NCBI GenBank assembly: GCA_965116475.1
Contig: OZ220691.1
Span: 1,248,001-1,312,000, forward strand
Source of the DNA: Gemmatimonadota bacterium
Lineage (GTDB): Bacteria; Gemmatimonadota; Gemmatimonadetes; Palauibacterales; Palauibacteraceae
Direction of reading: 5' to 3'
Length of the DNA stretch: 64,000 nt
Every line of letters starts with the position of its first letter. The first letter of the stretch is position 1. Below, piece by piece: positions 14,235-27,273 of this stretch. The notes under the pieces were generated by a model, which worked only from the letters and a program-made list of their open reading frames with translations, had not been told where the DNA came from and made no database searches. The translations under genes and the position numbers were made by a program.

Positions 14235-15332
14235 ATGGCGGTGGTTTCCATGAGCTCCAGCGATGGTCACGGACACGATCATGACCACGATCATGGGCAT
14301 GATCACGACCACGCGCATGATCACGACGATGATCACGACCATGATCACCACCACCACGGGCATGATCACGACCACCATCACCACCACGGTATTTTCGGCG
14401 CCCACGATCATTCGGACGAACTGAGGAACGCCAGCAAGCGCGACCTGACGGTCGCCCTGCTGATCATCGCCAGCTTCATGTTCGTAGAGGTGGTCGGGGG
14501 CATCCTGTCCGGAAGTCTGGCGCTCATCGCCGACGCGGGGCACATGCTCACCGACGCGGCTTCCATCGGCCTCGCGCTGTTCGCCGTGCACTTCGCGACG
14601 CGTGCCGCCTCGGTGGAGCGCACGTTCGGCTACCACCGGCTTGAGATCCTCGCCGCCCTCATCAACGCCCTCACGCTGTGGCTGATCTCGGCCTGGGTGA
14701 TCTTCGAGGCGTACCACCGCTTCCAGGATATCCCGGAGGTCGAGGGCGGCCTGATGCTGATCGTGGGGACCCTCGGGCTGCTCGCCAATCTCGCCGCGGC
14801 CTGGGTGCTGCACCGGTCGGCGAAGCACAGCGTGAACGTCGAAGGCGCCCTGGCCCACGTGATCGCCGACATCCTCGGGTCGGTGGCAGTCATCGTGTCC
14901 GGCGTGCTCGTATGGGCCTTCGGCTGGTACATCTCGGATCCGATCCTCAGCGTCCTCATCGGGATACTGATCCTGCTCAGCACATGGCGCCTGCTGGCCA
15001 AGGTTGTACACGTGCTGCTCGAGGGGACGCCGGATCACGTCGACGTGTACAAGCTCTGCCACCAGATCGAGGATCTTGAGGGGGTCACGGTGATTCACGA
15101 TGTCCATGTGTGGACGCTCGCACCGGGCTACGACGCGCTCACGGCGCATGTCCTGGTGGATCCGGAGCACGGGGGCGATACGACGAAGCTCCTCGACAGG
15201 ATCCGGGAGATCGCCTACGACGACTTCAACCTGCAGCACGTCACGGTCCAGGTGGAGACCAGTGCCGCGCAGTGCAACGAAGACCACCACGTCGACCATT
15301 TGGTCGCAACGGCGCGACCTCACTCTCACTAG
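14235..15332 (+). CDS. czcD: Cation diffusion facilitator (CzcD/ZitB-like Zn/Co/Cd exporter) with long His/Asp N-terminal tract; alternative start 14250
   Basis: SLALIADAGHMLTD, TFGYHRLE, HVIAD, LLEGTP, HDVHVW and HVTVQ. Confidence 0.92.
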   Translation: MAVVSMSSSDGHGHDHDHDHGHDHDHAHDHDDDHDHDHHHHGHDHDHHHHHGIFGAHDHSDELRNASKRDLTVALLIIASFMFVEVVGGILSGSLALIADAGHMLTDAASIGLALFAVHFATRAASVERTFGYHRLEILAALINALTLWLISAWVIFEAYHRFQDIPEVEGGLMLIVGTLGLLANLAAAWVLHRSAKHSVNVEGALAHVIADILGSVAVIVSGVLVWAFGWYISDPILSVLIGILILLSTWRLLAKVVHVLLEGTPDHVDVYKLCHQIEDLEGVTVIHDVHVWTLAPGYDALTAHVLVDPEHGGDTTKLLDRIREIAYDDFNLQHVTVQVETSAAQCNEDHHVDHLVATARPHSH

Positions 15333-15347
15333 TCAAGGAGAACGCAA

Positions 15348-15671
15348 ATGGGCGGCCACGACCACAACTGCGAGGGTCACGACAGCAGCCATAAGCACGG
15401 TGACGGTTGCGGCCACGAAGCCGTGGAGCATGATGGCCATACGGACTACGTCGTCGATGGCCACCTGCACCATGTGCACGGAGATCACTGCGACGACCAC
15501 GGCCCGGCCGAGGGTCATGGCCACGATTGCGATGGGCACGCCAGCGACCACACGCACGGCGACGGCTGCGGCCACGAGGCCGTGGAGCACGATGGCCACA
15601 CGGATTATGTCGTCGATGGCCGCTTGCACCACGTGCACGCCGGGCACTGCGACGATCACGGTCCGGCTTAG
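15348..15671 (+). CDS. His/Cys-rich metal-binding mini-protein made of two approximately 53-aa repeats
   Basis: AAGGAG RBS; 27 His and 6 Cys in 107 aa; repeat HxHGDGCGHEAVEHDGHTDYVVDGxLHHVHxxHCDDHGPA. Confidence 0.85.
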   Translation: MGGHDHNCEGHDSSHKHGDGCGHEAVEHDGHTDYVVDGHLHHVHGDHCDDHGPAEGHGHDCDGHASDHTHGDGCGHEAVEHDGHTDYVVDGRLHHVHAGHCDDHGPA

Positions 15672-19840: not shown

Positions 19841-19869
19841 TTGACAAGCTAACGGCGCGATGCGATCCT
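19841..19869 (+). promoter_or_regulatory. Putative his operon promoter TTGACA-N17-GATCCT with TG upstream of the -10
   Basis: Perfect -35 at 19841; the -10-like hexamer ends 8 nt before the leader ATG. Confidence 0.55.
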
Positions 19870-19877
19870 CCGCGCCC

Positions 19878-19940
19878 ATGACGAACACCCATCCGTTTTT
19901 CGGCCATTATTGCTACCACCGCGTGCGCGGAGGCCGGTGA
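19878..19940 (+). CDS. hisL: his operon leader peptide MTNTHPFFGHYCYHRVRGGR
   Basis: 20-codon ORF with 3 His codons directly upstream of an antiterminator/terminator and hisG. Confidence 0.75.
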   Translation: MTNTHPFFGHYCYHRVRGGR

Positions 19941-19979
19941 TCGTCTAACTGTATCCCGAACACAGATTGCGAACGATCG

Positions 19980-20008
19980 AAGCCGGCCCGGGGTGGCCGG
20001 CTTTTTTT
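19980..20008 (+). terminator. Attenuator intrinsic terminator
   Basis: AAGCCGGCC-cggggt-GGCCGGCTT followed by a T run; its 5' arm can alternatively pair with GGCCGGTGATCGT (19932-19944). Confidence 0.85.
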
Positions 20009-20051: not shown

Positions 20052-20918
20052 ATGAACCACAAAACGACAAGACTCGCCCTGCCCAAGGGGCGGATGCAGT
20101 CCGGCGTACTCGAACTGCTGACCGCCGCCGGCGTGCGCGTGGATCTCGGGGAGCGCCGCTACCGCCCGGTCATCTCGGTCCCCGGCTTCGGCGCCAAGCT
20201 GCTAAAGCCGCAGAACGTCGTGGAGATGCTGCATGCGGGATCCCGCGACCTGGGATTCGCGGGCGCCGACTGGGTGGCGGAACTGAACGGATCGCTGGTC
20301 GAACTGCTGGACACGGGGCTCGACCCGGTGCGCGTCGTGGCGGCCGCTCCGACGCAGATCGCCGGGGCGGGACTGCGCGCCGCCGGCCGTCGTCTCACCG
20401 TCGCGTCCGAATACGCGCGGCTTTCCGCGCGCTGGATCGACGAGCGGGGACTCGACGCGACGCTCGTGCGGTCGTACGGGGCGACGGAGGTGTTTCCGCC
20501 GGAGGACGCCGACGTGATCGTCGACAACACCGCGACGGGCGCGACGCTCGACGCCAACGGGCTTGAGATCGTCGACGAACTCATGGCCTCCTCGACCCGC
20601 CTCTACGCGAACCCGCGGGCGCTCGAGGACCCGCGGCACCGCGAGCGAATCGAGAACCTGGTCGTCGTGCTAAAGTCGGTCGTGGAAGCCCGTCAGCGGG
20701 TCATGCTGGAAGTCAACGTGGACGCGGCGCGGCTGGATGACCTGGTGGCCGTGCTCCCCTGCATGCGCAAGCCGACGGTTTCGCGCCTGCACGGTGAAGG
20801 GGGCTACGCCATCCGGGTCGCCGTGCTGCGCGAAGCCCTCCCGGGCCTGATCCCGCGCGTGAAGGCGCGGGGCGGGACCGATCTCGTCGTGACGACGCCG
20901 GGACAGATCGTCGCATGA
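20052..20918 (+). CDS. hisG: ATP phosphoribosyltransferase, long form
   Basis: LALPKGR, DLGFAGADW, SYGATE and DNTATGATL; C-terminal regulatory domain with PTVS. Confidence 0.93.
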   Translation: MNHKTTRLALPKGRMQSGVLELLTAAGVRVDLGERRYRPVISVPGFGAKLLKPQNVVEMLHAGSRDLGFAGADWVAELNGSLVELLDTGLDPVRVVAAAPTQIAGAGLRAAGRRLTVASEYARLSARWIDERGLDATLVRSYGATEVFPPEDADVIVDNTATGATLDANGLEIVDELMASSTRLYANPRALEDPRHRERIENLVVVLKSVVEARQRVMLEVNVDAARLDDLVAVLPCMRKPTVSRLHGEGGYAIRVAVLREALPGLIPRVKARGGTDLVVTTPGQIVA

Positions 20919-21931
20919 GCGGGATGGCGGTGGCCGCACCACCGGGCGAACGGCTCCGGCTCGATCACAACGAGCGCCTGTTTCCGGCGCCGGAACTCGT
21001 CCGTCTCCTCGCGCGCGTCCCGGCGAGCGCCCTGACGCGGTATCCGGAGACGGCCGCCCTGGAAGAGTCCCTCGGTGCGGTTTTGGGGCTGGACGCCGAC
21101 CGCGTCCTGGTCACGGCGGGGGCGGATGACGCGATCGACCGCGTGTGCCGCCGCTACCTGTCCGGCGGACGCGAGCTGATCACCGTGACCCCCACATTCG
21201 AGATGATCCCGGCTTTCGCGTCGCTCGCGGGCGGCCGCGTGCGGTCGATCCCCACGCTGAACGACCCCGCTCCCCTCGGACCCATACGCGACCGTATCGG
21301 GGGACGGACGGGGCTGGTCGCCGTGATCTCGCCGCACAACCCCACGGGAGAGGCGGTCCCGGCCGCGCGAATCCTCGAGATCGCCGACAGCCTGCCGGAC
21401 GGCGCGGCCCTGCTCGCGGATCTCGCCTACGTCGAGTTCGCCGACCGCGATCCGACGGCGGAACTGCTGGGGCGCGACAACGTCCTCGTCGCGCGGACGC
21501 TGTCCAAGGCCTGGGGCCTCGCGGGGCTTCGGGTGGGGTTCGTGCTGGGCCCGCCCTCGGCGATCGCGGACCTCCGCACCGGCGGTGCGCCCTTCCCTCT
21601 TGCGGCCCCCTCCATCTGGCTGGCGGAGCAGGCGCTGGCGTTGGGCGACCGGGTCACCTCGACGTACGTCGCCGCCGTGCGCCGCGAGCGCGAGAGGCTC
21701 GTCTCGGCGCTGCGCGCGGCGGGGGCGGAGCCCTTCGAGTCGCAGGCGAACTTCGTGCTCGCCTCCACCGACCGGGCCGCCGCCCTGTACCGCGGCTTTC
21801 GGCAGCGGGGCGTCGCGATCCGGCGCTTTCCGAACTTCCCGGACCTGGTCCGGATCACGCTTCCGGGGGACGAGGCGACGTTCCGCCTCCTCCTCCGGGT
21901 GCTCGACACGACGGTTGGACACTTCTCGTGA
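20915..21931 (+). CDS. hisC: Histidinol-phosphate aminotransferase
   Basis: RLDHNE, SPHNPTG, DLAYVEF, RTLSKAWGLAGLRVG and SQANF. Confidence 0.92.
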   Translation: MSGMAVAAPPGERLRLDHNERLFPAPELVRLLARVPASALTRYPETAALEESLGAVLGLDADRVLVTAGADDAIDRVCRRYLSGGRELITVTPTFEMIPAFASLAGGRVRSIPTLNDPAPLGPIRDRIGGRTGLVAVISPHNPTGEAVPAARILEIADSLPDGAALLADLAYVEFADRDPTAELLGRDNVLVARTLSKAWGLAGLRVGFVLGPPSAIADLRTGGAPFPLAAPSIWLAEQALALGDRVTSTYVAAVRRERERLVSALRAAGAEPFESQANFVLASTDRAAALYRGFRQRGVAIRRFPNFPDLVRITLPGDEATFRLLLRVLDTTVGHFS

Positions 21932-21942
21932 AGGGGATTCCC

Positions 21943-22647
21943 ATGAATGCGAATTCCGAAGACAGTCGCTCGGCCGGCGGACGGGTGGGAGAACGGTCCC
22001 GGCGGACGCTCGAGACCCGCATCGAAGCCGGGCTTGATCTGGACTGCCGCGGGCGCAGCCGCATCGACACGGGGCTCGCGTTTCTCGATCACATGATCGG
22101 CGCCTCGGTGTTTCACGCCGGCATGACGCTGGATCTGCGCGCGCAGGGCGACCTCGACATCGACGATCACCACACGGTGGAAGACTGCGGACTCGTGTTC
22201 GGGTCGGTCATCCGCGACGCACTCGGGGACCGGCAGGGGATTCGCCGCTTCGGGTACGCCTACGCGCCGCTCGACGAAGCGCTCGCCCGCGCGGTCGTCG
22301 ACCTCTCCGGGCGTCCCTTCGCCGAGGTGGACCTCGGCCTCCGGCGCGAGATGCTGGGGGCCGTGGCGACCGAGAACCTCAGCCATTTCTTCGCCTCGCT
22401 CGCGACGGCGGGAGGTCTCACGCTGCACGTCGATGTCATCCGCGGAGACAACGACCACCACAGGGCGGAAGCCGCCTTCAAGGCGTTCGGTCTCGCCCTC
22501 GCCGAAGCGGTAGCCGAACGCTCCGCGGCCGGAGTTCCGAGCACGAAAGGGGTGCTCGGATCGGGCGACGTGCCCGCAGGCGACGTGCCCGCAGGCGACA
22601 TGGAAGAGGACTCGGGGGCGGAGACCCTCGAGAGGGTGTCTCGATGA
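21943..22647 (+). CDS. hisB: Imidazoleglycerol-phosphate dehydratase (monofunctional)
   Basis: FLDHM, DDHHTVED, PLDEAL, NDHHRAEAAFKA and PSTKG. Confidence 0.95.
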   Translation: MNANSEDSRSAGGRVGERSRRTLETRIEAGLDLDCRGRSRIDTGLAFLDHMIGASVFHAGMTLDLRAQGDLDIDDHHTVEDCGLVFGSVIRDALGDRQGIRRFGYAYAPLDEALARAVVDLSGRPFAEVDLGLRREMLGAVATENLSHFFASLATAGGLTLHVDVIRGDNDHHRAEAAFKAFGLALAEAVAERSAAGVPSTKGVLGSGDVPAGDVPAGDMEEDSGAETLERVSR

Positions 22648-23327
22648 GCGCCGCGCGGGTGGCCACGGGCCCGGAAGACGTGGGGATCGTTCCGACCGGA
22701 GTGGCGAACCTGGAGGCGGTGGCGGCCGCCTTCCGGCGGTTGGGGAAGACCCCGCGGCTGCTGGACTCCGCCGCCGGAATATCGCGCGCCGACTACGTCG
22801 TCCTCCCCGGCGTGGGGTCTTTCGCCGGAGGCATGGCGGAGCTGCGCCGGCGCGGATGGGCGGAGGCCGTCTGCGGGCGCGTGGAGGAGGGACGGCCGAC
22901 GCTCGCCATCTGCCTCGGACTGCAGCTTCTGTGCGAGGAGAGCGAGGAAGCTCCGGGCACCGCCGGGCTTGGGTGTGTGCCGGGCCGCGTGGTCCGGCTG
23001 GCGGAGAGTTGCCGGGTTCCCCAGTTGGGCTGGAACCGCGTCGCGGCTCCGGGCGGGACCGCGTTCCTGCGGTCTTCTGTCGTCTACTTCGCCAACTCCT
23101 ACGGGCTCGAAGCGGGTCCCGCCGGCTGGACGGCCGCGATGGGACGGCACGGGAGCCGCTTCGTGGCGGGGCTGGAGCGCGGCGGCGTCCTCGCCTGCCA
23201 GTTCCACCCGGAGTTGTCGGGGAAGGTCGGCGCGGGCCTTCTGAAGCGATGGCTCGAAGAGTCGCCGGGCGCGGCGGAGGCGTTCGAACGGCGCGCGCAA
23301 TGGCCCACGCTCGCGGCGGCATGCTGA
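22644..23327 (+). CDS. hisH: Imidazole glycerol phosphate synthase glutaminase subunit
   Basis: LPGVGSF, ICLGLQLL, PQLGWN and QFHPE. Confidence 0.93.
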   Translation: MSAARVATGPEDVGIVPTGVANLEAVAAAFRRLGKTPRLLDSAAGISRADYVVLPGVGSFAGGMAELRRRGWAEAVCGRVEEGRPTLAICLGLQLLCEESEEAPGTAGLGCVPGRVVRLAESCRVPQLGWNRVAAPGGTAFLRSSVVYFANSYGLEAGPAGWTAAMGRHGSRFVAGLERGGVLACQFHPELSGKVGAGLLKRWLEESPGAAEAFERRAQWPTLAAAC

Positions 23328-24112
23328 ACGTTCGGGTCATTCCGTGCCTGGACGTGAGGGACGGCAGGGTCGTGAAGGGCGTCCGGTTCGACAACCTCGC
23401 GGATCAGGGCGACCCCGCCCGGCTCGCGCGACGCTACGAGCGCGAGGGGGCGGACGAACTCGTGATCCTCGATGTCTCGGCCACGGCGGAGGGAAGAGTG
23501 GCCCGGTTCGAAACGGTGGGCCGCGTGCGTGACGAGATTTCGATTCCGCTCACGGTCGGCGGCGGCGTGCGGACGGCGGAAGACGCGGGCGCCCTGCTGG
23601 AGGCGGGGGCGGACCGGGTCGCGGTGAACACGGCGGCGGTCGAGCGACCTGAACTCCTGTCGGAGATCGCGAGCCGTTTCGGCGCCCAGTGCGCGGTCCT
23701 GGCGCTGGACGCCGGCGCGGCGGCCGACGAGGGGGACGCCGGCGCGGCCAGCGGGGCGTGTCCGAGCGGCTTCGAGGTTCTGACCCACTCCGGAAGCCGA
23801 CGCACGGGCCTCGATGCCGCGGAGTGGGGCCGCCGCGCGGCGGAGCTGGGCGCGGGCGAGATCCTCCTCACGAGCTTCGACCGCGACGGCACGCGGAGCG
23901 GCTACGACCTGGCCCTGGTCGGCGTCATCCGCGAGGCCGTGCCGGTGCCGATCGTGGCTTCCGGCGGGGGAGCCCATGCGGGTCACATGTGCGCGGCGGT
24001 CGAGGCCGGCGCCGACGCGGTCCTGGCGGCGTCGATTTTCCATCAGGGCGACTGGTCGATCGGCCGACTCAAGGATCGACTGCAGCAGCTCGGCGTCGCG
24101 GTGCGTCGATGA
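23321..24112 (+). CDS. hisF: Imidazole glycerol phosphate synthase cyclase subunit
   Basis: RVIPCLDV, VVKGV, GADEL, TVGGG, GEILLTSFDRDGT and ASIFH. Confidence 0.95.
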   Translation: MLNVRVIPCLDVRDGRVVKGVRFDNLADQGDPARLARRYEREGADELVILDVSATAEGRVARFETVGRVRDEISIPLTVGGGVRTAEDAGALLEAGADRVAVNTAAVERPELLSEIASRFGAQCAVLALDAGAAADEGDAGAASGACPSGFEVLTHSGSRRTGLDAAEWGRRAAELGAGEILLTSFDRDGTRSGYDLALVGVIREAVPVPIVASGGGAHAGHMCAAVEAGADAVLAASIFHQGDWSIGRLKDRLQQLGVAVRR

Positions 24113-26760
24113 TCGTCCCATCCATCGACCTGATGGGCGGCCGGGCCGTGCAGCTTCGGCAGGGCTCGACGCTCGAAATCGACGCCGGCGACCCGCGGCC
24201 TCTCGCCGAACGGTTCGCCGTCGCGGGAGAAGTCGCGGTCATCGATCTCGACGCGGCGCTCGGCCGCGGAGACAACGCCGCCGTCATCCGGGAACTGCTC
24301 CGGCTCGCCCCGTGTCGGGTGGGAGGCGGCATCCGGTCCCGCGAGGCGGCGCTCGACTGGCTCGACGCGGGAGCGCGGCGCGTGATCCTGGGCACGGCGG
24401 CGAATCCCGACATCCTGAGCGGACTCCCTGCGGAACGGGTGATCGCGGCGCTCGACGCGCGCGATGGCGAGGTCGTCGTGGAGGGCTGGCAACGCGGGAC
24501 GGGCCGTGACGTCCTCGGGCGGATGGCGGAACTCGACGGCCTCGCGGGCGGCTACCTGGTCACCTTCGTGGAGGTCGAAGGGACGCTGGAGGGGATCCCG
24601 CTGGATCGCGTCGCCGCCCTCGTCGCGGCCGCGGGATCCGCGCGGGTGACGGTGGCGGGAGGTGTCCGCGAGGTGTCGGAGATCGCGGCGCTGGACCGGA
24701 TGGGCGCCGACGCGCAGGTGGGGATGGCGATCTACAGCGGGCGCATGGACCTCGCCGACGCCTTCTCCGCTCCGCTGCGGTCCGACCGGGCCGACGGGTT
24801 GTGGGCGACGCTGGTCGAGGACACGGCCGGTCGCGCGCTCGGGCTCGCGTGGTCGAGCGCGGAGAGCCTCCGCACCGCCGTCAGTGAACGGCGCGGCGTC
24901 TACCAGAGCCGCTCGCGGGGACTCTGGAGGAAGGGCGAGACCTCCGGCGCCACGCAGGAACTCGTCCGCGTGGCGGCGGACTGCGACCGCGACACGCTGC
25001 GCTTCACGGTGCGGCAGCACGGGACCGGCTTCTGCCACACCGGCGCCGCGACGTGTTTCGACGCCGCGCCGTCGCGGATGTCGGCGGCGCTGCCGTCCCT
25101 GTCGGGCATGGGACTGTCCGACCTTGAAACCCGCCTCCGCGATCGGCTCGCCGACGCGGAGGCGGGCTCGCTGACCGCGCGGCTCGCGGGGGACCCCGAA
25201 CTGCTGCGGGGGAAACTCGTCGAGGAAGCGCAGGAACTGGCGGAAGCCGGATCGAAGGCGGAAGCGGTGGCGGAGTTCGCGGACCTGCACTACTTCGCCC
25301 TAACGCGGCTCGTGAACGCCGGCGGCTCACTCGAAGACGTACGCCGCGAACTCGAGCGGCGCGCCCTCAAGGTGCGCCGACGGGCCCCGCGGCTGCCGGG
25401 AGGGCAGACGGGGCGGGCGGCGGCGCCCGCTCCGGCCGCGGCGGGCGCCGCGGGCGCGGTCCTGCCGCCGATCGGCCTCGAGGAGGCCGTGCGGGCGGTG
25501 CGCTCGCCGGCGCTCGATCCCGCGGCCCTCGAGGTCGCGCGGACGATCCTCGACGATGTCGAGCGGCGGGGAGAGCCGGCGCTCCGCGAGCACGCCGAGC
25601 GGCTGGGCGACATCGAGCCGGACGACGACCTACTCCTCGACCGGGCGGCTCTCAAGCGCGCGGCAGAGGCACTGCACGCCGACGACCGCGCGTTGCTGCG
25701 CCGCGTGGCCGACCGGATCCGCGCGTTCGCGGAGGCCCAGCGGGCATCCGCGGATGACCTCGACACGCCGGTCGCCGGCGGCCGCGGCGGCCATCGCCTC
25801 GTACCCGTCGGAGCGGCCGGCTGCTACGCGCCCGGGGGGCGCTTCCCCCTCCCATCCTCGGTGCTCATGACCGCCATTCCGGCGCGGGTGGCGGGCGTGG
25901 CCGGCGTCTGGGCGGCATCGCCGCGCCCGACCGCGGCGGTCCAGGCCGCGGCGTTCATGGCGGGGGCGGACGGCCTGCTCGCCATCGGCGGCGCGCAGGC
26001 GATCGGCGCGCTCGCCTTCGGCGTCGGCGGCGTCTCCCGCTGCGAGAAGATCGTGGGGCCGGGCAACCGGTTCGTCACCGGGGCCAAGCGCCTCCTCTAC
26101 GGCCGGGTAGGCCTCGACACCATCGCCGGCCCGTCCGAGTTGCTCGTCGTCGCCTCGCCGGATGCGTCACCGACGCGCGTCGCGGCCGACCTGCTCGCCC
26201 AGGCCGAGCACGACCCCGACGCCGTCCCGCTTCTGTGCGTCTTCGACGAAGCGACCGTCGAGGCCGTCCGCGAAGAGGCCGGGCGGCAGTTGGCCGCGCT
26301 CCCGACCGCGCCGATCGCGCGTCAGGCCCTGGCGGCCGGCGGCACCCTCCTCGCGGCCAGCCCCGACGAGGCCGCCGCCATCTGCGACGCGTTGGCGCCG
26401 GAGCACCTGCACCTGCACGGGGAGCGGGCCGAGGCCCTCGCCCCCCGCGTCCACCGCTACGGATCGCTCTTCCTGGGCGCGGCCACGCCCGAGGCGGCGG
26501 GCGACTACGGAGCGGGACCGAACCACACGCTGCCCACATCGGGCGCGGCGGCGTTCGACGCGGGACTCTCGGTGTTTTCGTTCCTGCGCCGACCGACGTG
26601 GCTGTCGCTGTCGTCCGACGAGGACGGTTACGAGGAGCTGCTGCGCGACACCGCCGCGCTCGCCCGGCTGGAGGGACTGGAAGCCCACGCGCTTTCAGCG
26701 GAACTGCGGCTCACGGTAGCGGCCCGGGAGGGTCCCGGTCGGACGGCCCGCGCTTCGTGA
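24109..26760 (+). CDS. Fused HisA-HisI-HisE-HisD multifunctional histidine biosynthesis protein (883 aa)
   Basis: HisA: PSIDL, VGGGIR. HisI: SRSRGLWRKGETSG, DCDRD, CHTGxxTCF. HisE: KLVEEAxE, ADL. HisD: YAPGGRFPLPSS, VGPGN, AGPSE, QAEHD, APEH, GDYxxGPNHTLPT, EGLEAH. One open frame. Confidence 0.9.
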   Translation: MIVPSIDLMGGRAVQLRQGSTLEIDAGDPRPLAERFAVAGEVAVIDLDAALGRGDNAAVIRELLRLAPCRVGGGIRSREAALDWLDAGARRVILGTAANPDILSGLPAERVIAALDARDGEVVVEGWQRGTGRDVLGRMAELDGLAGGYLVTFVEVEGTLEGIPLDRVAALVAAAGSARVTVAGGVREVSEIAALDRMGADAQVGMAIYSGRMDLADAFSAPLRSDRADGLWATLVEDTAGRALGLAWSSAESLRTAVSERRGVYQSRSRGLWRKGETSGATQELVRVAADCDRDTLRFTVRQHGTGFCHTGAATCFDAAPSRMSAALPSLSGMGLSDLETRLRDRLADAEAGSLTARLAGDPELLRGKLVEEAQELAEAGSKAEAVAEFADLHYFALTRLVNAGGSLEDVRRELERRALKVRRRAPRLPGGQTGRAAAPAPAAAGAAGAVLPPIGLEEAVRAVRSPALDPAALEVARTILDDVERRGEPALREHAERLGDIEPDDDLLLDRAALKRAAEALHADDRALLRRVADRIRAFAEAQRASADDLDTPVAGGRGGHRLVPVGAAGCYAPGGRFPLPSSVLMTAIPARVAGVAGVWAASPRPTAAVQAAAFMAGADGLLAIGGAQAIGALAFGVGGVSRCEKIVGPGNRFVTGAKRLLYGRVGLDTIAGPSELLVVASPDASPTRVAADLLAQAEHDPDAVPLLCVFDEATVEAVREEAGRQLAALPTAPIARQALAAGGTLLAASPDEAAAICDALAPEHLHLHGERAEALAPRVHRYGSLFLGAATPEAAGDYGAGPNHTLPTSGAAAFDAGLSVFSFLRRPTWLSLSSDEDGYEELLRDTAALARLEGLEAHALSAELRLTVAAREGPGRTARAS

Positions 26761-27160
26761 GGTGGTCGAGGGCACGGTCCACGGCGTCCTTCGTCGAGGC
26801 CGTCATCCCGCCCCGCTCGTACTCCTGCACCGCCAGCCGCTCCAGGCGGTCGACGAGCGCATCGACGCCGGGCCGCGGGGACGACGGCAGGGCGCGGACG
26901 TGATCCGTGGCGCCGAAGAGGTTGATCCAGTACTCCGTCCGGCGCCCCCACTCCAGCAACCCGTAGAACTGCCGGCCCGCCCGGGGCCCGACGCCGAGCA
27001 CATCGAGCAGGGCGACGAAGAGCGAGATCGGCAGCAGCAACGCATCCCTCAGGCCATCGAGAATGAGCTTCAGCTGAAAGACGGCCACGTCGCGGATGAG
27101 CGTCCAGCGCGAGGGCACGATTTCGGGATGCAGGGTTGCTCTGGCCGGAAACTCGTTCAT
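26711..27160 (-). CDS. Conserved hypothetical membrane-associated protein
   Basis: RDxxVFQLKLxxDGLRDxxLxP and WINLFG motifs; GC3-biased codons; convergent overlap with the end of the his fusion gene. Confidence 0.65.
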   Translation of the reverse strand: MNEFPARATLHPEIVPSRWTLIRDVAVFQLKLILDGLRDALLLPISLFVALLDVLGVGPRAGRQFYGLLEWGRRTEYWINLFGATDHVRALPSSPRPGVDALVDRLERLAVQEYERGGMTASTKDAVDRALDHLTKRGPSDRDPPGPLP

Positions 27161-27273
27161 CCTGTGTCTCGATTCCTTGATCCGCAAAATAAACTCCGCG
27201 GCTTCGTGTAACCCTCACGTAGCACACAGCCACCACAGATCTACGCCGGTGCCCGCGACCATGGGAGCCATCA

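Follow-up and report, generated by a model that had tools for sequence, protein, structure and literature searches.

The window analysed here is a 64,000-nucleotide (nt) stretch of Gemmatimonadota contig OZ220691.1 (positions 1,248,001 to 1,312,000, forward strand), and it contains a histidine operon in the order hisG-C-B-H-F-[A-I-E-D]. The subject of this study is the last gene of that operon, a hisA-hisI-hisE-hisD fusion, and its relationship to fungal HIS4. The fusion gene (24109..26760, +) is a single open reading frame (ORF) of 883 amino acids (aa), supported by the ORF list, Pfam, NCBIfam and contigs across both junction regions. Its ATG at 24109 overlaps the hisF stop by 4 nt, its TGA lies at 26758-26760, and it has no internal stop. 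A sequence-only reading of the window had proposed that this ORF carries a HisA barrel, HisI, HisE, an Ala/Pro linker and HisD, and a Pfam domain scan confirmed the arrangement; the HisI and HisE motifs quoted in that reading are present in the protein. Four families scored above their cut-offs: His_biosynth (residues 1-213, E 9.6e-40), PRA-CH (residues 246-317, E 3.6e-25), PRA-PH (residues 337-418, E 7.6e-13) and Histidinol_dh (residues 473-868, E 2.8e-118).

The domain boundaries were drawn from several sources. The HisA (phosphoribosylformimino-AICAR phosphate, ProFAR, isomerase) triose-phosphate isomerase (TIM) barrel covers residues 1-222 (24109..24774, +), as indicated by Pfam, an alignment to E. 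coli HisA, a predicted model and Foldseek. HisI (phosphoribosyl-AMP cyclohydrolase; residues about 223-320; 24775..25068, +) was placed by Pfam and an alignment of relatives, and HisE (phosphoribosyl-ATP, PR-ATP, pyrophosphohydrolase; residues 337-418; 25117..25362, +) by these two and NCBIfam. The segment 25363..25524 (+) holds the HisE tail, an Ala/Pro/Gly-rich linker and the start of HisD, as read from the sequence and from an in-frame contig of sequencing run X2; this is the site at which the A-I-E gene of most bacterial relatives stops and an overlapping hisD begins. Finally, HisD (histidinol dehydrogenase; residues 473-868; 25525..26712, +), of a clade-specific divergent type, was assigned from Pfam, TIGR00069, a tree and an alignment to the E. 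coli protein. A convergent 158-aa ORF without a Pfam match (26711-27187, -) shares the final 50 nt of the fusion gene.

All junctions between the genes of the operon are overlaps. The long-form hisG (20052..20918, +; likely start ATG 20052), the monofunctional hisB (imidazoleglycerol-phosphate dehydratase; 21928..22647, +), hisH (22644..23327, +) and hisF (23321..24112, +) were recognised by Pfam and NCBIfam. The gene at 20915..21931 (+) is a hisC-like aminotransferase by Pfam, with hisC as its best NCBIfam match, under the cut-off. Upstream of hisG, the sequence contains a short leader ORF with three His codons (19860..19940, +; second ATG 19878), likely an attenuator peptide, and then a terminator-like GC-rich hairpin with a T run (19980..20008, +). 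The same layout was seen in 4/4 same-genus loci examined, with 3-7 His codons and a common end motif, and one of the 22 terminator-like sites in the genome had such a His-rich ORF. No Rfam family matched the leader region at gathering score. Positions 19860-20008 are thus a likely candidate for a His attenuator, in which a terminator hairpin lies between a His-rich leader ORF and hisG. A similar leader also precedes the ordinary his operon of a sister-family genome. Contigs from RNA runs of related strains span parts of the operon but are evidence of neither its transcription nor a single transcript. A membrane-protein ORF whose N-terminus is long and rich in His and Asp (14235-15671, +), presumably a cation-efflux transporter, and a 107-aa His-rich repeat protein lie about 4 kb upstream of the operon.

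HisIE and HisD compared with fungal HIS4

The HisIE part of the fusion protein was 52% identical to the HisIE parts of 11 named fungal HIS4 proteins and 35% identical to 9 ordinary HisIE. Fungal HisIE, in turn, was 50% identical to the bacterial clade that holds the fusion protein (hereafter the clade), 56% to the amoebae and 34% to ordinary HisIE. Full-length fungal HisIE scored 241-288 bits on a hidden Markov model (HMM) of the clade HisIE, and HisIE trees separated ordinary HisIE from the clade with a Shimodaira-Hasegawa-like approximate likelihood ratio test (SH-aLRT) value of 99. The view that HisI and HisE of this protein resemble HIS4 more than enterobacterial HisIE was therefore upheld by identities and per-domain trees alike.

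The HisD part gave another result. The bacterial, amoebal and choanoflagellate HisD of the family grouped together, whereas fungal and sponge HisD formed a separate clade (SH-aLRT 99) among ordinary HisD, in both free and constrained trees. Fungal HisD was 35% identical to the family and 44% identical to 53 ordinary HisD. In fast searches, forcing all eukaryotic HisD together cost 486 log units, whereas fungal HisD as sister of the whole family was compatible with the data (p 0.64). Since fungal HisD falls outside the family clade, the sequences indicate that HIS4 shares the N-I-E part (N-terminal region, HisI and HisE) with the fusion protein, but not the D part. The idea that HIS4 is the whole four-domain protein with a dead front end was not borne out.

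It is thus very unlikely that HIS4 is a direct and whole descendant of a single bacterial A-I-E-D fusion in which only the barrel changed. The domain order is the same, the lengths are similar (840-900 aa) and HisIE belongs to the same clade; in one tree, fused deltaproteobacterial proteins stand next to the amoebae; and in the choanoflagellate Hartaetosiga a decayed barrel, clade HisIE and clade HisD occur in one chain. However, the position of fungal and sponge HisD and the 486 log units speak against descent as a whole, and so do the fused bacterial forms, which are scattered among split ones. The Hartaetosiga chain suggests that opisthokonts once had a four-domain form and that the fungal/sponge line exchanged its HisD; a separate joining of N-I-E to another hisD would fit as well. 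In S. pombe, according to a passage of Fani et al. (2007, PMC1963479), the N-I-E part and HisD are apart. The softer version, an ancestral four-domain protein with a later HisD swap in the fungal/animal line, is compatible with the data and forms part of the best explanation.

Two further architectures concern HisD. One protein (P0151) has a eukaryote-type architecture with two near-identical HisD copies. We considered it as a carrier of two HisD kinds that could explain the swap, and ruled it out, as both copies are near-identical and of the clade type. In addition, many proteins of 750-830 aa (P0294, P0297, P0300, P0301, P0305 and others) open with an ordinary HisD, after which about 370 residues remain.

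The HisA barrel and the N-terminal region of HIS4

The genome, which is Palauibacter-like, is a single contig, 96% complete, and was searched with family profiles for His domains. PF00977 matched hisF and the fusion gene only, PF01502 and PF00815 matched the fusion gene only, and no HIS6-type gene in the genome scored above the cut-off. An inositol monophosphatase-type HisN above the TIGR02067 cut-off lies outside the window, at 1992003-1992740, and supplies the step absent from the operon. Within the fusion protein, HisD scored above the TIGR00069 cut-off (378.1 vs 243.8 bits) and HisIE under the NF002747 equivalog cut-off (110.2 vs 187 bits). The HisA domain reached 136.9 bits against a Pfam His_biosynth cut-off of 23.6, but was under the TIGR00007 equivalog cut-off (136.9 vs 228.95 bits); its sequence places it in a divergent subfamily, outside the canonical equivalog.

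An alignment with E. coli HisA showed that D7, which we take to be the catalytic base, R76, T96, D116 and W127 are retained in the fusion barrel, where E. coli D7, R83, the G102-S/T103 pair, D129, W145, G177, G204 and G225 are all matched. Glu157 (codon 24577-24579) stands in place of D176, which confirmed the VEGT that had been read at the acid position. In E. coli-type HisA, a passage of PMC9088769 describes D176 as the catalytic acid, W145 as stacking, and R83 and S103 as phosphate grippers. Glu occupied the acid position in 71/71 aligned homologues, in 77/78 clade domains from GTDB and in five named amoebal proteins. Because it is kept clade-wide, the Glu is not an indication of HisA decay; by this comparison of sequences it is a trait of the clade.

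The other active sites are conserved as well. In 74 aligned relatives, HisI D291-C292-D293, D295, C309-H310 and C316 and HisE E372, E373, E376, E389 and D392 were invariant, and we assume that these Cys/Asp and Glu/Asp motifs bind metal. HisD Q698, H701, E765, H766, D799 and H860 correspond to E. coli HisD Q259, H262, E326, H327, D360 and H419, presumably the Zn ligands and the catalytic Glu-His. A predicted model of residues 1-425 (pLDDT, the predicted local distance difference test, 94; pTM, the predicted template-modelling score, 0.89) had HisA/PriA as its top structure matches, with a template-modelling (TM) score of about 0.83, and the high pTM suggests a fixed arrangement of barrel and HisIE. 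From these residues we infer that all four domains are active. Of the earlier proposal of a four-activity enzyme, the four domains with their active-site residues stand, and the activities would follow from sequence.

Several observations weigh against an active HisA domain, and could mean that it is decaying or changed in function and inactive through the Glu: the scores under the HisA equivalog cut-offs, the Asp found at the acid position in 14/14 ordinary HisA, and a barrel about 20 residues shorter than that of E. coli. We nevertheless consider this highly improbable. The Glu is retained throughout the clade and the amoebal proteins, and it stands alongside intact D7, GGGIR, GT, AGG and GMA motifs and W127. 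Moreover, the genome searches turned up no second HisA and no HIS6-type gene, the rest of the operon is complete and preceded by its His-rich leader, and the predicted model matches HisA/PriA at a TM score of about 0.83.

For the N-terminal region of fungal HIS4, a passage of Fani et al. (2007) reports no conserved domain or PSI-BLAST hit and proposes a structural role. The sequence-only reading had suggested that this region is a decayed HisA barrel, and profile tests together with fold prediction and overlay support that suggestion well. First, an HMM of the clade HisA scored the amoebal proteins at 309-327 bits and that of the sponge Corticium at 63 bits (E 2e-18, full profile length). The scores were 41 in Salpingoeca, 30 in Steccherinum, 20 in Kwoniella shandongensis, 15 in Hartaetosiga and 8 or less in the named ascomycetes, and the weak matches were all in one register. 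Second, an HMM built from 54 named fungal N-termini reported one of 29,760 six-frame genome segments, namely the fusion HisA domain (E 0.017), and reached at least 10 bits on 75/78 clade HisA, 2/14 ordinary HisA and 3/92 HisF. Third, hhalign of the fungal region against the clade HisA gave 92.6% (local) and 95.6% (global), colinear up to the HisI junction, and the controls (reversed, HisD and HisIE) gave 0.1-0.3%. The pooled fungal profile gave 94% for clade HisA (126 columns), 74% for ordinary HisA (52) and 37% for HisF (45); size-matched subsets gave 93-94%, and the basidiomycete profile gave 96% for clade HisA vs 24% for HisF.

The structure of the region was predicted for residues 1-202 of the Didymella protein with AlphaFold2, using 110 fungal or fungus-like rows and no templates. 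The model (pLDDT 91) had eight strands alternating with helices. HisA was the match in all 14 Foldseek rows listed among ranks 1-16 (best E 1.9e-6, TM 0.62), and VIA-align identified a TIM barrel, with HisA 4gj1 at Z 14.6 (root-mean-square deviation, rmsd, 3.3; 184 aligned). Both the fusion barrel and the fungal N-region are thus predicted to fold as (beta/alpha)8. The decayed copies are without the GGG, GT, acid and GMA motifs, and the strand-4 LDxG motif is retained. On sequence grounds the decay of the barrel is stepwise, with the barrel intact in amoebae, partial in the sponge and choanoflagellates and faint in ascomycetes. We hold with very high confidence that the HIS4 N-region is homologous to the clade HisA barrel.

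Three results weigh against this homology. VIA-align gave a GlpP-type barrel, 1vkf, in a tie with HisA (Z 15.1, rmsd 2.5, 162 aligned). The ascomycete-only profile did not discriminate (clade HisA 38%, ordinary HisA 53%, HisF 63%) and, over 40 columns, slightly favoured HisF. Pfam His_biosynth was not detected at E 0.1 in 14/16 proteins scanned, all fungal ones included. They would suit an origin of the fungal region from HisF or from some unrelated TIM barrel, or a likeness to HisA by convergence. We give such an origin almost no credence, since the region occupies the same place before HisI and is colinear end to end, graded intermediates exist in the sponge, choanoflagellates and early-branching fungi, the pooled and basidiomycete profiles prefer clade HisA to HisF by a wide gap, and Foldseek ranked HisA first.

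Several individual proteins carry the barrel in other settings. The Corticium candelabrum protein, encoded on a 6.3-Mb contig, has the best-preserved decayed barrel together with clade HisIE and a fungal-type HisD, and is the clearest intermediate found. A Salpingoeca protein (P0162) has about 450 unrelated residues, then a decayed barrel and HisIE, and no HisD. Another protein (P0233) has the order decayed barrel-HisIE-aminotransferase-HAD, and a Clastostelium protein (P0381) has an intact A-I-E followed by about 350 residues other than HisD.

Eukaryotic and bacterial relatives

Intact A-I-E-D cores were found in Acanthamoeba (H-F-A-I-E-D-G), in Paramoeba (H-F-A-I-E-D) and in Protostelium and Copromyxa (A-I-E-D-C-HAD), and the amoebal domain order H-F-A-I-E-D equals the gene order in the window's operon. 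A search with Paramoeba HisIE gave mostly fungal HIS4 (761 among 1,475 candidates, the best 120 being listed). HisIE trees were built from 111 of 151 rows in one case and from 85 in the quick mixture tree relied on; the trees omitted some of the GTDB loci as well as near-duplicates from Palauibacter, and none of them contained decayed barrels.

In a careful 52-row tree, 14/14 named eukaryotes formed one clade (100/100) within a bacterial core (100/100), three bacterial rows branched deeper than this core, and the bacteria formed one clade in 0/200 bootstrap trees. By these phylogenies, the eukaryotic HisIE is shown to group inside the bacterial clade. Some points weigh against this placement. 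The 52-row tree used LG+G4 without a mixture model, its composition was uneven, its bootstrap was unsettled and fungi filled 24% of its columns. With HisIE alone, a thorough approximately unbiased (AU) test gave p 0.42 for fungi outside the bacterial clade, at a cost of 10 log units. Joining fungi to ordinary HisIE cost 136 log units (p 0.005) in the fast search vs 10 (p 0.42) in the thorough test. Fast constrained searches therefore overstate rejection, and of their results we relied only on the 486-log-unit gap given above and the 708-log-unit gap given below.

The bacterial sister of the eukaryotes was Myxococcota or deltaproteobacterial in each best tree, and its identity was unstable, which also weighs against a firm placement: fused deltaproteobacterial proteins took this position in a 67-row concatenated tree (SH-aLRT 99), and unfused Myxococcota/deltaproteobacterial proteins in the 52-row tree (92/78). 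The window's lineage was the eukaryotes' sister in no best tree, although the test of that position did not reject it (p-AU 0.30); the window protein did not prove to be the nearest relative of HIS4. Choanoflagellate rows grouped with Discosea, away from sponge and fungi, contrary to a simple history; transfers from protist to protist may therefore complicate it.

The reverse direction, in which bacteria took the fused genes from protists, or an older link through an ancient common form, is hardly credible. In its favour are the p-AU of 0.42 for fungi at the base with HisIE alone, a patchy bacterial distribution that does not follow phyla, and a bacterial backbone mostly without resolution. 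Against it, bacterial rows branch deeper than the eukaryotes at 100/100 and fail to form one clade in any bootstrap tree, most of the bacterial members are separate operon genes whose codons overlap, and the domains of the amoebal proteins follow the order of the operon.

A motif scan of GTDB genomes for clade HisA found at least 120 stretches, 80 of them with flanks; the loci are a motif-selected sample, not a random one. The 80 loci span nine named phyla, and in 56 of them A-I-E is accompanied by a separate adjacent hisD. Seventeen had no adjacent hisD, four were fully fused and three were not scorable. Among the 56, the hisD start overlapped the A-I-E stop by 4 nt in 33 loci and lay between -11 and +20 of the stop in 50. 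A hisD frame open upstream of the stop (49/56) was discounted, as this is expected in GC-rich DNA; the count of start codons was used instead. On the 67-row tree, the label fused or split changed 11 times, at least 6 of them forced by starred branches, and forcing all fused forms into one clade cost 708 log units in the fast search. From these changes and this cost, the E-D join is recurrent as judged from sequence, and label counts are unable to tell fusion from fission. The four-domain gene likely arose when a hisA-I-E gene joined a hisD that overlapped its stop.

Alphaproteobacterial loci had A-I-E without an adjacent hisD (9/10 Pseudomonadota loci). HisH and HisF were in one open frame in several GTDB loci (L013, L017, L020, L025, L028 and others), and HisF and A-I-E in two (L044 and L048); these may be further fusions or merely open frames in GC-rich DNA. 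In a plasmid search aimed at HIS4-type proteins, the matches listed were all ordinary HisD or HisIE, and they were reused as outgroups. The ESM Atlas gave only HIS4-like clusters with scores under 0.8, and no lead. The matches to a search for short HisIE relatives were largely fragmentary, on short contigs, and were set aside.

Clade-type HisIE was found in 23/34 other same-genus genomes, at 64-93% identity. Ten of the 34 had no match to the HisIE query and one had a weak match; some of these genomes are single-contig, and they may be histidine auxotrophs. A passage of PMC10469786 names histidine as one of the putative auxotrophies common in Palauibacterales. In other genera of the same family, 15/50 genomes had matches to the HisIE query, at E 1.5e-25 or weaker. 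Across other genera within the order, clade-type HisIE occurred in 0/68 genomes, and the 15 weak matches were of the ordinary type. A sister-family genome has an ordinary G-D-C-B-H-A-F-IE operon. Given a clade HisIE limited to the genus and this ordinary operon in the sister family, the Palauibacter copy was probably gained sideways at the base of the genus.

The four-domain bacterial His protein is genuine. The linker is of low complexity and most distant relatives have a stop at that place, but an assembly or frameshift artefact of the GC-rich linker is refuted by in-frame contigs across it from two studies and by a fusion common to 17 same-genus genomes and 119/120 best homologues listed. 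Run X1, possibly the source sample, gave a 3,198-nt contig over 22873-26070 with 0 differences, and run X2, from a different study, gave a contig that spans the E-D linker (25200-25754) and differs by 18 substitutions and by 21 gap letters; the latter number is divisible by three, which keeps the frame. All four domains were present in those 119 homologues, and the remaining one was without the N-terminal part; the closest named ones among the matches listed were Candidatus Palauibacter and other Gemmatimonadota (88-91% identity). In 24 same-genus genomes, 17 had a full-length match, one more was split over two contigs and six had no match. A TGA counted in one of them (G019) does not mark a split gene, as A-I-E-D is in one ORF there. 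The sequence-only reading had named a linker indel or stop, or relatives that are all split, as observations that would refute it, and found here were in-frame contigs and fused relatives. That the fusion is rare or a single event did not hold, given hundreds of homologues, a separate hisD in most relatives, and repeated joins.

Proposed history and comparison with known systems

We consider it probable that one polypeptide carries out steps 2 to 4 of the pathway together with its last two, and very likely that its clade is the source of the HIS4 N-region as a decayed HisA barrel. In the proposed mechanism, HisE would cleave pyrophosphate from PR-ATP and HisI would open the ring to give ProFAR. 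The barrel would isomerise ProFAR to PRFAR (phosphoribulosylformimino-AICAR phosphate), with Asp7 as base and Glu157 replacing the usual Asp acid. The separate HisF/H, HisB and HisC and the unlinked HisN would act next, before HisD converts histidinol to histidine by oxidation. As the HisA and HisD steps do not follow one another, their join would give fixed stoichiometry and co-expression rather than channelling.

As for the history, a bacterial H-F-AIE-D operon, probably Myxococcota or deltaproteobacterial, would have entered the ancestor of amoebae and opisthokonts. Amoebae would have retained the intact barrel and fused further genes to it. In opisthokonts a separate HIS6-type isomerase would have taken over the reaction, after which the barrel would have lost its residues for catalysis and phosphate binding while persisting as a structural element; the fungal/sponge line would have its HisD from an ordinary-type hisD. 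The Palauibacter copy would be a cousin. That HIS6 made the opisthokont barrel redundant is our inference. Yeast has a separate His6 (PDB 2agk), which was among the Foldseek matches, and a passage of PMC6214176 describes a trifunctional protein and a separate yeast-like isomerase in robust corals. The evidence for a separate isomerase thus covers yeast and robust corals. We put forward as reasonably probable the whole history, in which the HIS4 N-region is a fossil HisA from a bacterial H-F-AIE-D operon, kept alive in amoebae, while opisthokonts switched to HIS6 and the fungal/animal HisD was swapped; in it, the clade HisA forms a Glu-acid subfamily, and bacteria repeatedly re-created the four-domain form from a 4-nt overlap.

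Compared with the enterobacterial hisGDCBHAFIE operon, the window's order is G-C-B-H-F-[A-I-E-D]. The folds and most active-site residues of HisA, HisIE and HisD are the same, and a leader and terminator precede hisG in both. The enterobacterial enzymes are, however, separate proteins, with D176 where the fusion protein has Glu; their HisIE and HisD are about 35% identical to those of the window and fall in separate clades, and the window leader has no Rfam match. Closer to the fusion protein is the bacterial trifunctional PRA-PH/PRA-CH/ProFAR isomerase reported in a passage of Witek et al. (2021, PMC8102479) from some Gammaproteobacteria and Spirochaetia. It has the same A-I-E unit, whereas in the window protein HisD is joined as well, and by the motif scan the unit occurs in nine named phyla. 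The same paper contains a similarity network linking fungal HIS4 to lineages near Myxococcales, and its relevant passages draw no link to the HIS4 N-region; those of PMC8305728 add no such fusion.

The A-I-E fusion is thus already published, as is the giant protein of amoebae. The bacterial four-domain form and the dead-barrel origin of HIS4 were not found in print: the literature searched, with most subscription journals and the structure-database annotations of HIS4 outside the scope, showed no report of them, and a search on the fused gene names gave unrelated text only, among the matches listed. Database names of the homologues were "histidinol dehydrogenase" only, and metabolic reconstructions may therefore miscall such genomes as histidine auxotrophs. 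The fusion is widespread, under-annotated and made of known enzymes, and its value lies in the explanation of HIS4 that it gives.

Among eukaryotes, a HIS4-type architecture occurs in animals, in the trifunctional His protein of corals (Ying et al. 2018, PMC6214176) and in the sponge Corticium; the Corticium protein differs from the fusion protein in its decayed barrel, without Asp7, GGG and the acid residue, and in its fungal-type HisD. The heptafunctional Acanthamoeba protein shares the intact A-I-E-D core, which the clade HMMs score at 319/279/596 bits, and likewise has Glu at the acid position. The amoebozoan proteins differ in that HisH, HisF and HisG, or HisC and HAD, are fused too, whereas these are separate genes in the window's operon. 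In the passages concerned, Rice et al. (2018, PMC6029752) describe the seven-domain Acanthamoeba protein, leave its origin open and name no bacterial counterpart. The present comparison links histidine synthesis in amoebae, fungi and early animals with a single bacterial operon, and it sets apart a HisA subfamily whose acid is likely Glu; the chemistry is otherwise ordinary.

Fungal HIS4 has the same order of N-region, HisI, HisE, linker and HisD, HisIE of the same clade and an N-region homologous to the fusion HisA. It differs in that the N-region is without the catalytic and phosphate-binding motifs that the fusion barrel conserves, in a HisD of ordinary-type lineage and in not being part of an operon. 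Passages of Fani et al. (2007) report that no prokaryotic HIS4-like protein was found, and the window supplies one. It also gives a very likely identity to the first 160-220 residues of fungal HIS4, which were left without assignment there, and the series from intact to half-decayed to barely recognisable barrels offers a clean natural case of an enzyme turning into a pseudoenzyme.

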